DNA from: a virus | Lineage: Duplodnaviria; Caudoviricetes | IMG/VR virus record: IMGVR_UViG_3300036762_000065 | Coordinates: 1 to 64,000 of that record | Reading direction: 5' to 3' (one strand) | DNA: 64,000 bases | Part shown: positions 31,699-38,368 of the stretch, in pieces | How positions within the stretch are numbered: the stretch's first letter is position 1 | How the letters are laid out: each line of letters opens with the position of its first letter | Notes under the pieces: model-generated | The model's database searches: none | Seen by the model: the letters and a program-made list of their open reading frames with translations, nothing else | Told to the model about the DNA's origin: nothing | Made by a program: the position numbers and the translations under genes

Positions 31699-31719
31699 TA
31701 TAAATGTGCGGAGAACGTG

Positions 31720-32943
31720 ATGAGCAACATCTTGTACGCGGTAGAAGGCGAAACGGCTATTGCTAAGGAAGTATTTGTCGATGAGTACAACGAACCTTAT
31801 GGTATAGCAAACACTGAAGAAGGCCCTGTAGTAAGACTGTTTGATACAGACAATGCGGTCATTGCCGAACAAGTCGCTATTCCAGACCACGAAGGACAAA
31901 TCGGAGAGTGGGCTGCCAATATACCTGTACCTAAGATGGGCCTTACAAATCGTGTTGAACTACGTCTTGTGTGGACATTTAAAACAGAAGAGAATGACAT
32001 ACATAGAAGTACACAGGTTTGTTTTGTAGAACCTTCTACAGAAGGCAGAGAGACAGATATCGTTGTTCTCGTAGGAAGAGACAGCACTATGCAAGTTAAC
32101 CTGCCGTTTGCTTTTCATCCTACAATTCCTGAGATTCCTGCAAATCTTGCTACAAACTCTCCTGCAGTACCTAGTGTAGTGAAAGACAGTGTTAGATTTT
32201 CTATGTATAGAAACAACACTGCCCTTTATGCTAATGAATATTTAGAGCATACCGACCCCTCCGTGTCGTTCAAAACCTCGGTCAATAAGACAACATTTAC
32301 GTTACCTGCTACAGTAGGTCAAGCAAAACTTGAGCCGGTTTTACTTATTGTTGAACTTACACAGCCTGGCCAAACAATGCCGCAAAACTTTTCTTTCAAG
32401 GTCTGGCCGATAACTCCGCAAATGTTGATTGCAGTTAGTCAGATAGAGGATTTTATAAACAAGGCTAGGCTAGAGAACGTAATTCCAGAACTTGAATACA
32501 CACAAGCCGATATACTACAGTATTTAAAACGAGGGTTGGATTTATTTAATTCCTTACCTCCTCAATTGACTGCATTCACTGGCACTAATATGCAGGGAAA
32601 CATAGCAGATAGCTGGTTAACTTGCGCATCTTACTATGCACTGGCATCACAGTTACAGGCAGAAGGCGCACTTGCGTTTGATTTTAGCGGCCAAACTGTA
32701 AATCTTAACATAGATAGAACCCCTGCTATTGAAAGTGCTTTAGGACGTGTGGAAGCAGCTATTGATAACATTGTTAAACCTTTCAAGAAACTACTTGCCA
32801 AAGCAGGGGTTCTTGGAGGCGACGGCTCTGTCGGCGGAGGTTTTATAAATGGAAGTACGGCACTTGGCACATTGAGTGTCATTAACGCACCTACTACAAG
32901 ACTGCCTCACTCAAGAAGAGGTTCTTGGTTTAGACCTTATTGA
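31720..32943 (+). CDS. Probable virion structural protein (neck/adaptor-like)
   Basis: About 407 aa; beta-rich N-terminus and helical C-terminus with FDFSGQTVNLNIDR; weak functional call. Confidence 0.45.
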   Translation: MSNILYAVEGETAIAKEVFVDEYNEPYGIANTEEGPVVRLFDTDNAVIAEQVAIPDHEGQIGEWAANIPVPKMGLTNRVELRLVWTFKTEENDIHRSTQVCFVEPSTEGRETDIVVLVGRDSTMQVNLPFAFHPTIPEIPANLATNSPAVPSVVKDSVRFSMYRNNTALYANEYLEHTDPSVSFKTSVNKTTFTLPATVGQAKLEPVLLIVELTQPGQTMPQNFSFKVWPITPQMLIAVSQIEDFINKARLENVIPELEYTQADILQYLKRGLDLFNSLPPQLTAFTGTNMQGNIADSWLTCASYYALASQLQAEGALAFDFSGQTVNLNIDRTPAIESALGRVEAAIDNIVKPFKKLLAKAGVLGGDGSVGGGFINGSTALGTLSVINAPTTRLPHSRRGSWFRPY

Positions 32944-32952
32944 TAGTGCAAG

Positions 32953-33309
32953 GTGAATATCATGTTGTCTGATTTTTACTTACTTACAGGAATGATAAAC
33001 GAGATCATAAGTATCTCCGTTTTACTCTATAGTGCTTACGCTATTTATAGGGTATTTACCTGCATACCTAACTCCAAACAGCGTAACTTAGCCGTACTTC
33101 CTTTAGTAGTTATATTTTTGCTATCTCTACACTATTCCTACGCGCAAATGCTTTGGGTACTAGAGTCTAAAGGCGCATCCGTAGGAGAATCAACAGAGTT
33201 GGAGTGGACAATACATGAGGCTATCAGTTTTGTGTTATATTTCCACTTCATTAAAGTATATACGGCTATTGCCGCACATAAAAAATTAAATTTAAGGAGA
33301 GGTATATGA
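32953..33309 (+). CDS. Membrane protein (about 3 TM)
   Basis: Three hydrophobic segments. Confidence 0.65.
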   Translation: MNIMLSDFYLLTGMINEIISISVLLYSAYAIYRVFTCIPNSKQRNLAVLPLVVIFLLSLHYSYAQMLWVLESKGASVGESTELEWTIHEAISFVLYFHFIKVYTAIAAHKKLNLRRGI

Positions 33310-34664
33310 GAGTGTTAGTATCGACAAGTGCAGCACTGAGTGCCGCTGCTAAAAACAAAATACAGAAAGCAGATTGGTTTGACTATAAAGGCAGAAAGGT
33401 ATTGTTTGATAATCACCACAAGTCTTATGATATAGACATAGCGAAAGGTGATAAAGTAGGGTTTATCCCTAATTCCAACGGCACTTACACTCTGTTGCAT
33501 TCAGACGATCCTGCAATCTATTTCAAAGTGTCTTCCGCAGAGCATGATGCGGTAGTGTTAAAATCTGTTCCTTACTACGGGCTAGTGCAAAAAGTACCGG
33601 TAATCTCTGATAAAAAACTTCTTACCTTAAGTTTTTCAGATAGGCATTCCGCAGTACTTTTAAATTCACTTACTGTAGCTAAATTGAAGCAGTTGTGTGA
33701 GTTGCGCGGTATTACAGGCATTTCTAAGAAACCGGAACTCGTTAGAGCCTTGGTCAAAGCAGACAAGACAGGCACTAAGAAAACTGCCGCAGCTCCTGCT
33801 AAAAAAGCCAACTCGACTCGAAGAGGAAACGGTAAAGTAGAGATAACTACACCGAAAGCACCTTTAACCAGACCCTCTAAACCTGTTCAACCTAAGACAG
33901 TTAAACCTAAGGTAAACCCTTCTGAACTCAAAGAAGGTGTTATTGTTAGTGTTAAGATAGAGGATGAAACTGTACAAGCAACCGTTGTAGAAGATGCTGT
34001 AGGAAGTAGAGTTCGTGTTGTTGCGAAAAAAGGTAGCACTAAGAATATGCCTATTTTTGTTGATATATCTAGTATCAATCGCATTGTTCCGCAAAAGGTT
34101 AAAGAACTAACACCGCTACAGAAAGAAAAAGCAGACTATGACACTATGCACGAATTAACAGGTGCCGGAACCGTTGTACGTCATAGAGGTGTGGAATATG
34201 TTGTTGTTTACAAACACAGTCGAAAGGCTACGAGTAAAACACCGTTCGACAATAAACTTGCCCTTGTTCCGATAGATGAAACTAAACCGTTGATAACATT
34301 GGACGTAAATAACTTAGAACACTTGCAAAGTATGTCTATTGATACTTTGAGTTTAGGTAAGTATAACGAGTACAAAGGAATTTTTGATAGGCGTAAATCT
34401 GAACTCGATGAAAAATCCAATGCCGCTGCCGCTATCAACAACGCACAGATTGCGAAGTTCGGTGTAAAAGAAGGAGATTCTACTTCATATCGCTTTCCAA
34501 ACGGTGCTGTGCAATTTGTTATTGTCCGAGCTATAAACTACGAAAAAGGTTTGATAGCAATAAGAGAAGGGTCTAAACTCAGATGGTTGCCAGGTAAGAA
34601 CATAGAGTATATTAAACGTACTGGTGACACTGAAATAAGCATGGATGGTAGCATGGGAAAGTAA
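33306..34664 (+). CDS. Multidomain protein with a SAP/Rho-N-like helix-extension-helix; 0-frame partner of a probable -1 frameshift
   Basis: LNSLTVAKLKQLCELRGITGISKKPELVRAL; AGGAGAGG SD; ends ATG GGA AAG TAA. Confidence 0.75.
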   Translation: MRVLVSTSAALSAAAKNKIQKADWFDYKGRKVLFDNHHKSYDIDIAKGDKVGFIPNSNGTYTLLHSDDPAIYFKVSSAEHDAVVLKSVPYYGLVQKVPVISDKKLLTLSFSDRHSAVLLNSLTVAKLKQLCELRGITGISKKPELVRALVKADKTGTKKTAAAPAKKANSTRRGNGKVEITTPKAPLTRPSKPVQPKTVKPKVNPSELKEGVIVSVKIEDETVQATVVEDAVGSRVRVVAKKGSTKNMPIFVDISSINRIVPQKVKELTPLQKEKADYDTMHELTGAGTVVRHRGVEYVVVYKHSRKATSKTPFDNKLALVPIDETKPLITLDVNNLEHLQSMSIDTLSLGKYNEYKGIFDRRKSELDEKSNAAAAINNAQIAKFGVKEGDSTSYRFPNGAVQFVIVRAINYEKGLIAIREGSKLRWLPGKNIEYIKRTGDTEISMDGSMGK

Positions 34665-34703
34665 GTCCCGCCTCTGAAGAACTAAAGCGTACAGACGGCG
34701 GGA
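34655..34703 (+). promoter_or_regulatory. Probable programmed -1 ribosomal frameshift signal
   Basis: In-frame G GGA AAG heptamer; hairpin TCCCGCC-TCTG...CAGA-C-GGCGGGA begins 4 nt after the heptamer; -1 frame is open from 34652 into the next ORF. Confidence 0.75.
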
Positions 34704-36490
34704 AGGTAAAAGATATAGTCGGGTTATCTTGGGAAGTGCATAACTACATTACACCCGGCACTAAGGAAGTCAGTGTACGTAAAGTAGAAGGAGTGCGTCC
34801 TGATGGTAAGTATTACGTTTCAGAAACAGGCACTAACGTACAAGATATCCTAACGTATGATTATATACTGGATATTAAGAAGAAAGATGAAGCTAATAAT
34901 GAGTACCGTGCTAAACAAGATGTCAAGAATGTTGCTGAGACTAAGCGCCTAGAACAAGAGTCCGTTAAACATAACGACATAGATGGATTTAAGTCTAATG
35001 CAGGAAAGTTGGAGTTAGGTAAAGCGTTGAAGGTACTAAACTCATTACGTAGGTTCAATGGCCAACCTTTGACTATAAAAGAATTTATACGTAATCGTAT
35101 TAAGTCCGGTAGCTATGTAGAGACTGACAGTAAAGGTAATCGCGTATTGATGAATAAAGATGATACGTTTATGGACATTAAAGGTACCACTAAGATAGGT
35201 ATGGATTACGCTGAGTATCTGTACAGCAAGACCGGTAGAGGAAAACAAGCACCTGATTCAGGATCGTTGAAAGGTTTCCTTGAAAGTAAGAATCCATTAG
35301 CACAGGAATATGCATATAACCAACTTACTAAGTCTGGTAAATTCTTAGGTAGAGAATGGGATTTAGTAATTGACTATATAAACGAAGCTATGAATAATCG
35401 TTTAGGTAGAGTTGAAGGTGAAGGTAATTCTCGTAAGTTAATTGTAGCTAAACGTAAGGAGCCTATAACTGTTGCCGAACTTGGTAATATAGGTATGGAT
35501 TACGCTGAGTATCTATACAACCTTACTGACAGAGGTAAGCAAGCTGCTCGCCTAAAAGAGAATAAGGATGCAACAGTACCTCATGTTGATCCAGCTAAAT
35601 CTACTGGTGAGTATATGTACGGGTTGTCCTTAAGACCATTCGGAATAGCAACTCAGCCTGCAGGGCAGACTGGTTACATACCGCCAGAAGAGGTTCCGCG
35701 AGACATTAAAGATAAGTTCGATGCTCGTACCTATCGTCACGGTATCGTAATATATCCGCAAAAGCTATCCGAAAGAGATGCTGATCGTTTCGACTTGATT
35801 GATTTCTCTGTAACCCCTTCTGATGAAAAGTGGCTTGCATTTGTAGAACTTATTAAAGACCTTAAGGAGTATGATTATACCATTACACAGTTTATTGATG
35901 AATTCATTAAACCTAATGGTGAGAGCGTTTCCGAGAACCCTCTTTATAAGAACACTAAGCCTAGTGTTACTATCATTATGGATTATCTGTCTAAGAATGG
36001 TTATCCTGGAAACATGAATGGACTTATCTCTCTCTTTACAAAGACCGGCAAGCAGACACAAGAAATGTCTATAGACGACTTTACACAACAAGTAAAAGAT
36101 GCTTATTACAAACAGTTTCCTAGAGGATGGATAAAAGGAGGACTCGAAAAGAGTATAGGACAGTACGTTGCACTAACGTTTGGTATACAACCGAAAGAGA
36201 AGTGGTTTAACGGATATGAGTCGAACGACCCTGCTCACCAATCTATCATTATACATGAGGTTAAAGACAGTAAGTTCTTGCCTAAGATAGTTGCTGACAA
36301 CGGAAGTACAGGAAGTACAATGTTGATTAAGCCTAAAACTCCTAATCTAGCTTACAGTAGAATAAAGCTTGGATACAGGAAGAAAACAGGAACCCCGGAA
36401 CAAGTCCTAGATCACATAAAGAAATACTTTGTACAAATGCGTAAAATAGTCGATCTAAATCGAGACAAATTAGCCCACGATATAGATTAA
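34661..36490 (+). CDS. -1-frame extension (or separate GTG-34736 ORF): polyvalent-type protein with an internal repeat and a DarA C-terminal-like domain
   Basis: IGMDYAEYLY...GKQA occurs twice; YGLSLRPFGIATQP...RHGIVIYPQKLS...FDL resembles the DarA_C pattern (from memory). Confidence 0.6.
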   Translation, partial: VSPASEELKRTDGGKVKDIVGLSWEVHNYITPGTKEVSVRKVEGVRPDGKYYVSETGTNVQDILTYDYILDIKKKDEANNEYRAKQDVKNVAETKRLEQESVKHNDIDGFKSNAGKLELGKALKVLNSLRRFNGQPLTIKEFIRNRIKSGSYVETDSKGNRVLMNKDDTFMDIKGTTKIGMDYAEYLYSKTGRGKQAPDSGSLKGFLESKNPLAQEYAYNQLTKSGKFLGREWDLVIDYINEAMNNRLGRVEGEGNSRKLIVAKRKEPITVAELGNIGMDYAEYLYNLTDRGKQAARLKENKDATVPHVDPAKSTGEYMYGLSLRPFGIATQPAGQTGYIPPEEVPRDIKDKFDARTYRHGIVIYPQKLSERDADRFDLIDFSVTPSDEKWLAFVELIKDLKEYDYTITQFIDEFIKPNGESVSENPLYKNTKPSVTIIMDYLSKNGYPGNMNGLISLFTKTGKQTQEMSIDDFTQQVKDAYYKQFPRGWIKGGLEKSIGQYVALTFGIQPKEKWFNGYESNDPAHQSIIIHEVKDSKFLPKIVADNGSTGSTMLIKPKTPNLAYSRIKLGYRKKTGTPEQVLDHIKKYFVQMRKIVDLNRDKLAHDID

Positions 36491-36560: not shown

Positions 36561-37442
36561 ATGGCTTCTTTAAAAAACGCCAGAAGTGCAGTGAATAATC
36601 TAGTAGCAGATTTAGGTAGAAGTAAGTCTGCCAACGTTATTGTTCAAAGTGCTGAAGAATTAAACGACGGGTTTGCTCGCGTCATTGCAACCGTAGCGCA
36701 TGTTAACGGGAGTCGCGGTACTAAGGCTTCTTTGATGGATGCACTACGAGCGAAGTTTGATAATAAACTTTTTCCTGTAGAGAACTCGTTTTCTGTATTG
36801 TCTTCCAACCCGGTTAGCGATACAGTTACAGGCATTCTTAGTGTTGCTCCGCAAGCAGTATCCTACACAGAAGACTTGCAAGGATTTAAAATACTTGCAG
36901 GTAATATGTTCATGGACGAAGAAGAAAACTTGTGGGCATTACGTAAGACAGAAGCCGGGGACATACTTGTTAAAAGCTTTGGTAAAGATGATGCAGAGGT
37001 AGTTAGCGGCCTTTTGAATTCCGTCTCTTCCTCTTACTCAGGAGCCTACGAGTCTGTAGCTAGTGTACAAAATACAAATAACATGTTAAATTCTATCTGT
37101 GGTGGTGATTACGTCACTTATGTAGAACCTCACAGTAGTAAGGTATCTTTCGGCGCTGTTGTTGCCTCTGTAGATAACGCAGACGGTACAGATAGCGGTA
37201 AGTTATATGTTGCTGATATAGATTGTGGACCAGCGCAATTTGTTGATAGGCGTATGGTACTTGCTTCATGGGACGGTGTTGAAGTAGAAGACGATGTTGA
37301 TGCCAATAGTGAAGTGGCCACTTCTTCTGCTAATGCGAAGAGTCCTGAGGAGATTGCTGCTTATTACCAGAAAGTTTTTCAGAGAAACGACGGTTATTTC
37401 CAGAAGTTTATGGAACGTTGGAAAAGTCACTCGTTCATGTAA
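36561..37442 (+). CDS. Hypothetical protein, probably virion structural
   Basis: 293 aa with AGGAG SD and its own terminator. Confidence 0.75.
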   Translation: MASLKNARSAVNNLVADLGRSKSANVIVQSAEELNDGFARVIATVAHVNGSRGTKASLMDALRAKFDNKLFPVENSFSVLSSNPVSDTVTGILSVAPQAVSYTEDLQGFKILAGNMFMDEEENLWALRKTEAGDILVKSFGKDDAEVVSGLLNSVSSSYSGAYESVASVQNTNNMLNSICGGDYVTYVEPHSSKVSFGAVVASVDNADGTDSGKLYVADIDCGPAQFVDRRMVLASWDGVEVEDDVDANSEVATSSANAKSPEEIAAYYQKVFQRNDGYFQKFMERWKSHSFM

Positions 37443-37507: not shown

Positions 37508-38368
37508 ATGAGAAAACGTAGAGCTTCTGTAGGTAACGTCACTGTCTTTGATGTTAGCGGCGGTGCCGATGTTGATGATCGCGGTAGACTTGTGAATAGA
37601 GACATACCGGACGATGCTCGTAGGTCAGCAGGACACGCTAAATCTAAAGCACGTTCTCAAATGCGCAAGCAAAAGGAAGACGCCAAACAACTCATAGCTA
37701 AAGAAAAAGAATTGGAAGAAAAACCAAGAAGACGGAAACGTGTTGAAAAAGAACCTGAAAGCAAAGTAAGAACAAAACGAACAAGAAAGACAGTCGGCGA
37801 GTTAATTGCTTCCGATAAACCGAGAGACAAGAAACGCGCACAAAAAAGACTCACACGTTTAGGAAGTTCTGTATCCAACCTGGCTGCTGGACTTGATGAA
37901 GAAATCAATCTAAGTCCTGTATTTTTAGAACGTAGCGTTTCTGAGCAGGATTTCCAAACAGAGTATAACAAAATATTTAATACGTTAGGTTCATTGTGTA
38001 GAAAGCTAGAACTTAATATGAATGACCCCGATAGTAAAGTAGGCTCTAGGGATGTTTACGCATTAATGACAATGTATAGTCAAATGAGGGAGACTATCGC
38101 TGATCTACGTAGTATATCCGATGTTAATACCCAGTCCGAAATGTTAATTAATGAAGTATTTAATCCTTACCATAAAACTGTAGGTGAAATGCTGGTAAGT
38201 ATGCTTTATAAAATAATGACACATTTAAGACAATCTTTAAACGAGGCACAAGCTCACCACGTTGGTGAACGTTTAAAAGAAATCATTTCAGAAGAAGCTC
38301 AATCCTTACAGTCTCAATTTGAACATACTACGGAAAAAGTTGCTGTTGTTCTTAACGCGAGTAAATAA
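37508..38368 (+). CDS. Hypothetical protein (basic N-terminal half, helical C-terminal half)
   Basis: 286-aa ORF with AGGTG SD. Confidence 0.75.
   Translation: MRKRRASVGNVTVFDVSGGADVDDRGRLVNRDIPDDARRSAGHAKSKARSQMRKQKEDAKQLIAKEKELEEKPRRRKRVEKEPESKVRTKRTRKTVGELIASDKPRDKKRAQKRLTRLGSSVSNLAAGLDEEINLSPVFLERSVSEQDFQTEYNKIFNTLGSLCRKLELNMNDPDSKVGSRDVYALMTMYSQMRETIADLRSISDVNTQSEMLINEVFNPYHKTVGEMLVSMLYKIMTHLRQSLNEAQAHHVGERLKEIISEEAQSLQSQFEHTTEKVAVVLNASK

Follow-up and report, generated by a model that had tools for sequence, protein, structure and literature searches.

A probable programmed −1 ribosomal frameshift joining a head-region protein to a polyvalent-type extension in an uncultured jumbo phage

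Introduction

How is a long reading frame translated when its first canonical start codon has no Shine-Dalgarno (SD) sequence and falls inside a predicted β-strand of its own first domain? The question is raised by two adjoining open reading frames (ORFs) of an uncultured 242-kb jumbo phage (Duplodnaviria; Caudoviricetes), known from IMG/VR virus record IMGVR_UViG_3300036762_000065, which has 241,706 bp, direct terminal repeats and a G+C content of about 38%; the window analysed here is the first 64 kb (64,000 nucleotides, nt) of that record. ORF1 (33306–34664; features are on the + strand unless stated otherwise) encodes 452 amino acids (aa) behind a strong SD sequence (taaggagaggtatATG). ORF2 lies in the −1 frame relative to ORF1, counts 584 aa from GTG 34736 and ends at 36490.

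A sequence-only reading of the window had proposed that a programmed −1 ribosomal frameshift yields a short form of 452 aa and a long form of about 1061 aa from these two ORFs. We find that the interpretation is supported, in particular by a conserved motif and a first β-strand that are coded before or across GTG 34736, together with a slippery heptamer and a stable hairpin at the junction, and we put the probability that ORF1 and ORF2 are joined by programmed −1 frameshifting at about 0.68.

Results

A slippery heptamer forms the end of ORF1

ORF1 ends in the codons ATG (34653), GGA (34656), AAG (34659) and TAA (34662), and its final two sense codons are part of the heptamer G_GGA_AAG (34655–34661), which is in X_XXY_YYZ register, as the sequence-only reading had stated. 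A slip of one base backwards would allow tRNA-Gly to re-pair from GGA to GGG and tRNA-Lys from AAG to AAA. The 0-frame stop codon TAA (34662–34664) directly follows the heptamer, and non-shifting ribosomes end there. On the upstream side, the last −1-frame stop codon, TAG (34649–34651), limits the window for a productive shift; thereafter this frame stays open, from 34652 as far as 36490, and, as had also been claimed, runs into ORF2. A productive −1 shift is therefore possible only within about four codons, and the heptamer occupies that window. In E. coli, G_GGA_AAG is reported to be very prone to shifting, and it yields lambda gpG and gpGT at a ratio of ~30:1 (PMC5009743). Tandem slippage would give a product reading ...SMGK-VSPASEELK..., in which the −1-frame extension (34661–36490; 609 aa from Val GTA 34661, plus stop) follows the 452 residues of ORF1; the computed fusion has 452 + 609 = 1061 aa, in line with the length first proposed.

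A GC-rich hairpin follows the heptamer at short distance

Directly downstream lies a candidate stimulatory hairpin (34666–34703), the 11-bp bulged structure that the sequence-only reading had placed 4 nt past the heptamer. Its stem consists of seven G/C-rich pairs, one bulged C and then four pairs, and encloses a 15-nt loop. The predicted energy is −17.6 kcal/mol (z = −3.1 against shuffles), and the hairpin is retained when folded in a 161-nt context. The spacer to the heptamer is 4 nt, or 5 nt with the terminal U-A pair open, and the base of the hairpin stands at +11 counted from the first P-site nucleotide. We judge this to be the stable structure looked for at ~5–9 nt after a heptamer, and a candidate for a stimulatory function.

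Such a structure is rare in this genome. Equally good folding is found in only 0.28% of 45-nt genome windows (~60 loci per strand). Among 318 in-frame XXXYYYZ heptamers in 262 crude gene calls, which cover 92% of the genome, G_GGA_AAG is the only one followed by a strong structure at 4–5 nt (1/318), and its downstream 45 nt are the second most stable of all, the sole more stable case having its stem 21 nt away. A heptamer with a correctly spaced strong hairpin and a long −1 ORF is expected by chance only ~0.005–0.01 times per genome. Furthermore, the stem is spelled, in the −1 frame, with codons that the phage uses sparingly, namely CCC (4% of Pro; 1.7 per 1000) and GGG (8% of Gly), as well as GCC (14% of Ala) and GGC (21% of Gly), a choice that suggests selection acting on RNA structure.

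The hairpin was also considered as a transcription terminator and rejected, as it lacks a T tail, has a 15-nt loop and a bulge and is unlisted in a terminator consensus scan; the terminators of this phage have 4–6-nt loops, perfect stems and T tails. A search of Rfam gave no match at the junction, and inspection by eye for a pseudoknot between the loop and downstream sequence gave nothing convincing. In the 161-nt fold only, a second 7-bp stem (GUCGGGU...ACCCGGC; 34718–34760) is predicted, with GTG 34736 in its loop region.

The ORF2 frame carries conserved coding sequence ahead of its first canonical start

Neither ATG nor GTG nor TTG occurs in the −1 frame between TAG 34649 and GTG 34736, and the resulting startless leader of 28 codons is the fourth longest among the 262 genes. 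The first canonical start, GTG at 34736–34738, had been said to lack a convincing SD sequence, and indeed no SD core is present at −17 to −5 of this codon or of GTG 34793, where the IMG gene call begins; such a core is present in 161 of the 262 crude gene calls, and neighbouring genes typically carry AGGAG 6–8 nt upstream of their starts. No usable start for ORF2 was found among these codons.

The peptide encoded immediately upstream of GTG 34736 is conserved. The first domain of ORF2, hereafter module A, begins with the motif VGLSWE (34718–34735), and alignments of module A homologues keep an N-terminal [IV]GxSW[ED] in which Trp is nearly invariant. Module A was also modelled with AlphaFold from a 15-sequence alignment (mean predicted local distance difference test score, pLDDT, 86.8; ~70 in the N-terminal sheet); the first β-strand in this model is S-W-E-V-H, which straddles GTG 34736 and places that codon inside the predicted strand. 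Because VGLSWE and β-strand 1 are coded before or across GTG 34736, the ORF2 frame must be entered upstream of it, and the stretch ahead of this codon is, from alignment and model, coding, or was so until very recently. Across 19 IMG/VR loci with module A, the module is either embedded in a long uninterrupted ORF or encoded by a separate gene that begins with an ATG of its own, and in none is it startless; database proteins with module A are likewise never startless and are either long polyvalent ORFs or stand-alone.

These observations bear on the alternative that ORF1 and ORF2 are simply two genes, ORF2 initiating by itself at ATA 34715 or at GTG 34736 or 34793 and the heptamer being there by chance. 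The gene caller did choose GTG starts, and a gap of 71 nt is not unusual between genes of this phage, but initiation at GTG would cost the protein its nearly invariant Trp and half of β-strand 1, and neither GTG has an SD. ATA (34715–34717), the one alternative start that translation table 11 allows within the leader, suits this alternative better, being a permitted codon with AAGG at a usable distance (9 nt upstream); it would keep VGLSWE, and stand-alone homologues begin a few residues before the motif. ATA start codons are, however, very rare and weak. This AAGG shares sequence with the 3′ end of the hairpin, and in a variant of the same idea ribosomes ending at TAA may open the hairpin that masks it, translationally coupling ORF2 to ORF1. 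Either version needs an in-register heptamer by chance, for which the probability of a proven heptamer within the 3-codon window is ~0.0015–0.013, and a leader open by chance, since no stop codon interrupts the −1 frame anywhere in the 'intergenic' stretch. Together, these points make independent initiation distinctly improbable.

The split between the two frames recurs in independent assemblies

In a protein collection, the 452-aa ORF (ending SMGK) and the 584-aa ORF occur with identical ends in JGI, Logan and ENA assemblies, and the proteins of a 246,623-nt Logan/ENA contig differ from those of the window by 4 and 2 residues. A sequencing indel was the refutation that the sequence-only reading had itself named; because independent assemblies that are ~99% identical show these ends again, an error of assembly or sequencing is ruled out as the origin of the split, which is reproducible. 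Two further accounts can be set beside such an artefact. Transcriptional slippage would have to act on G3 and A3 runs, which are too short for polymerase slippage, and reading of TAA as a sense codon would meet another 0-frame TAA seven codons on, in a genome where TAA ends many genes. No support was found for any of the three, and we regard them, even taken together, as very improbable.

Points that weigh against frameshifting and the case for a disabling indel

Several observations count against programmed frameshifting. Taken by itself, the heptamer carries no genome-wide significance: in 60 genes the −1 frame stays open for at least 50 codons beyond the stop, mostly because of ordinary ATGA-type overlaps, and ~1.6 heptamers are expected by chance in permissive −1 overlap windows, where 2 are observed. 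With 4 nt, the spacer is near the lower limit of what known signals show. The hexamer GGATGG (34643–34648), 6 nt upstream of the heptamer, is present where the sequence-only reading had seen an SD-like element, but it is weak, a poor match to the anti-SD that is not demonstrably above chance, so that a stimulatory role is unsupported and we give it no weight; for dnaX-type stimulators the optimal distance between SD and heptamer is 10–14 nt, and the spacing of GGATGG is shorter.

Furthermore, relatives offer little for comparison. At the DNA level, megablast and tblastn were run against phages and gapped DNA anchors were laid across the junction; at the protein level, peptide-pattern scans (IMG/VR and JGI metagenomes), a word-based search that included longer forms and a full HMMER search were used. 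These returned only the ~99%-identical cluster and single-module homologues. No diverged orthologue of either ORF was found in phage records, IMG/VR or JGI metagenomes, nor in a 5.8-billion-cluster collection or a 1.84-billion representative library. The three known copies, which are ~99% identical, could share a recent mutation.

It is here that a recent disabling indel has to be weighed, in which a continuous gene of ~1062 aa would have lost a single base, such as an A of GGGAAAAG, leaving ORF2 silent or translated only through chance slippage at what remains of the run, with the hairpin a coincidence. In distant homologues, module A does lie within an uninterrupted ORF, the split could be recent given that only ~99%-identical copies are known, and leaky 'compensatory' frameshifting on indels is documented (PMC5009743). 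Indels also arise preferentially in short homopolymer runs, which resemble slippery sites; the runs here, however, are only 3 nt long and poor indel hotspots. An indel would in addition need a hairpin from the top 0.3% to lie by chance exactly 4–5 nt past the site, where none of the 317 other in-frame heptamers has one, and to be spelled with the rarest codons, and it would have to leave both halves intact in two slightly diverged lineages. We consider such an indel unlikely.

The extension has the domain composition of a polyvalent protein

The part that frameshifting would append is built of four modules, which were delineated by a full HMMER search of 1.84 billion representatives and are numbered here by residues of the 612-aa −1 frame. 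Module A (34700–35251; residues ~17–200) comprises a small β subdomain, a long helix and an α/β subdomain ending KIGMDYAEYL, and its homologues are either stand-alone proteins of 165–180 aa or parts of polyvalent proteins of 900–4400 aa, where it accompanies DarA_N, DarA_C, InPase or DUF6908. Module A′ (35252–35551) duplicates part of the C-terminal half of module A, including a second NIGMDYAEYLY; the ends of A and A′ (35170–35230 and 35490–35550) are near-identical copies of [KN]IGMDYAEYLY..RGKQA, which indicates, at least by this resemblance, a recent internal duplication. A Foldseek search with module A against the PDB gave no match with E < 0.1, and scores from the ESM Atlas were below 0.8. 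Module B (35603–36046; residues 318–465), whose homologues include stand-alone proteins of ~156 aa, contains at residues 320–383 a DarA_C domain (Pfam E 6e-9; 36.7 bits against a cut-off of 27), so the DarA_C-like domain suspected in the extension is indeed there. Module C (36059–36487; residues 470–612) belongs to phrog_21515, of unknown function, and has many stand-alone homologues of 140–165 aa.

ORF1 contributes a KMPT-N domain (residues 23–86) and a SAP-like DNA-binding motif (residues 119–153), followed by a linker rich in K, P and T and by three small uncharacterised β-rich segments. The last segment (residues 380–452; 34443–34661) is weakly similar to the N-terminal KMPT-N region (33363–33575; z 3.5 against shuffles) and may be a second, degenerate copy of the KMPT-N fold. 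An internal-repeat test of the ORF1 C-terminal segments against the N-terminus of ORF2 gave nothing significant, and an AlphaFold model of ORF1 alone was unusable (pLDDT 41).

A polyvalent repertoire joins at least two conflict-related domains in one polypeptide; ORF2 by itself has A, A′, DarA_C and C, and fusion with ORF1 adds KMPT-N and SAP. On the grounds of domain content and head-gene context, the predicted long form would belong to the polyvalent proteins as defined by Iyer et al. (2017). Two other assignments were rejected. The protein is not an orthologue of P1 DarA, for it has DarA_C alone: DarA_N was undetected in ORF1 and ORF2, and the solved P1 DarA is matched only marginally (E 0.89). 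Nor is it a tail assembly chaperone, as Pfam and PHROG give KMPT-N, SAP and DarA_C and no chaperone family, and the neighbours are connector and head-region genes rather than tail tube and tape measure genes, which is not the position of a chaperone.

The two ORFs lie in an accessory block beside a head-tail connector gene

The head-tail connector gene (31717–32943; phrog_17327, E 3e-146), 360 nt upstream of ORF1, is 45–53% identical to its counterparts in jumbo phages PaBG, Lu11 and HRDY3 and in Erwinia and Dickeya jumbo phages, and the other neighbours are head-region genes. Homologues of the window genes at 36561–37442 and 37508–38368 come almost directly after the connector gene in PaBG and Lu11. 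Because the block 32953–36490, consisting of a 118-aa ORF, ORF1 and ORF2, is absent from PaBG and Lu11 at the syntenic site after the connector, it appears from this gene order to be an accessory insertion in the head-gene region. At that site there is an endolysin gene in PaBG and nothing in Lu11. As PaBG and Lu11 are without the cassette, connector synteny gives no comparison of the signal.

A second in-frame heptamer, A_AAT_TTA (33288–33294), occurs four codons before the stop of the 118-aa ORF (32953–33309), and a −1 shift there would lead into ORF1. It is probably there by chance, because it lies inside the SD region of ORF1 (overlap taaggagaggtatATGA) and ORF1 has a strong SD and ATG of its own.

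ARAGORN found no tRNA-Lys and no tRNA-Gly gene in the 242-kb genome. The sole tRNA gene that it reports is a tRNA-Ile (anticodon GAT; 176958–177052, − strand), which, at 95 nt, is longer than usual; the phage most often encodes Ile by ATA (53%).

Discussion

That shifting occurs, and with what efficiency, is a matter of inference, and the following mechanism would account for the arrangement. When ribosomes translating ORF1 arrive at G_GGA_AAG, tRNA-Gly would be paired with GGA in their P site and tRNA-Lys with AAG in their A site, and the GC-rich hairpin, its base at the mRNA entry channel (+11), would resist unwinding; +11 is where the ribosomal helicase meets the mRNA. Some ribosomes would slip one base back to GGG_AAA and continue via GTA in the −1 frame, and those that do not slip would terminate at the adjacent TAA. 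Both products would share residues 1–452, with KMPT-N, the SAP-like DNA-binding motif and the small β domains, and only the 1061-aa long form would carry A, A′, the DarA_C-containing B, and C. The likely logic would be that of Gag-Pol or of T7 10A/10B, with a fixed minority of a head-associated, DNA-binding protein bearing a payload.

The closest precedent in the signal itself is lambda G/GT, the −1 frameshift of the gpG/gpGT tail assembly chaperones, reportedly described by Levin, Hendrix and Casjens in 1993. The heptamer is the same, and there, too, short and C-terminally extended forms with a common N-terminal part are made in a fixed ratio. Unlike lambda G/GT, ORF1 and ORF2 do not encode a chaperone, are not placed between tail tube and tape measure, share no sequence relation with it and are several times larger in both parts (452 + 609 aa). 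In addition, a strong hairpin follows the heptamer here and the 0-frame stop adjoins it; lambda G/GT is not known to need a downstream structure. An XXXAAAG-type heptamer with a stem-loop a few nt downstream is also found in dnaX tau/gamma and in IS911/IS3 orfA-orfB, and in the IS3-type elements the shift likewise fuses two ORFs. In contrast to both, no convincing upstream SD stimulator is present here and the proteins are unrelated; in dnaX, moreover, the shift shortens the product.

That the proteins are not tail chaperones had been taken to make the locus unusual. The absence of any chaperone family agrees with this, but the claim was overstated, since extension of capsid proteins by −1 frameshifting has been published for T7 10A/10B and for phiEco32-like phages such as Privateer, the latter at GGGAAAG (PMC7881722). 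These cases resemble ours in that a non-chaperone gene of the structural region has a minor longer −1 form, Privateer even using the same heptamer. They differ in that theirs are short decorations on a major capsid protein, whereas here a four-module polyvalent-type payload would be set on an accessory protein that is absent in PaBG and Lu11. Polyvalent proteins including P1 DarA share with the long form the KMPT-N and DarA_C domains of their repertoire and the head-gene neighbourhood, but those described are single continuous ORFs and this one is split over two frames (PMC5512222). The paper on polyvalent proteins makes no mention of frameshifting (Iyer et al., 2017; PMC5512222), and in the published literature we found no case in which a polyvalent, DarA_C-bearing payload is the part appended by a frameshift. 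The unusual aspect is the payload, a 609-aa polyvalent-type module; frameshift extension of capsid and tail proteins was already known.

Polyvalent proteins are predicted to be packaged in the capsid and injected with the DNA (Iyer et al., 2017; PMC5512222). By analogy, the long form would presumably be packaged and would act against restriction or other host defences. Somewhat doubtfully, and as a tentative proposal, the frameshift could then be a dosing device for virion cargo, in which the bulk of the protein is a DNA-binding carrier and a fixed minority is armed with a polyvalent anti-defence payload.

If frameshifting takes place as proposed, −1 frameshifting in tailed phages would extend beyond chaperones and capsid decorations, and gene callers would mis-annotate such payloads as separate GTG-started genes, at the cost here of a nearly invariant Trp. 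The recoding cassette is compact (~50 nt) and testable. Polyvalent proteins are thought to be a first-strike kit of phages, delivered with the DNA; if the dosing idea is also true, tying synthesis of the payload to that of the shorter carrier would be a simple stoichiometric rule for copy number in the capsid, would mirror retroviral Gag-Pol, and might point to a general, so far undescribed way for tailed phages to load injected effectors in set amounts.

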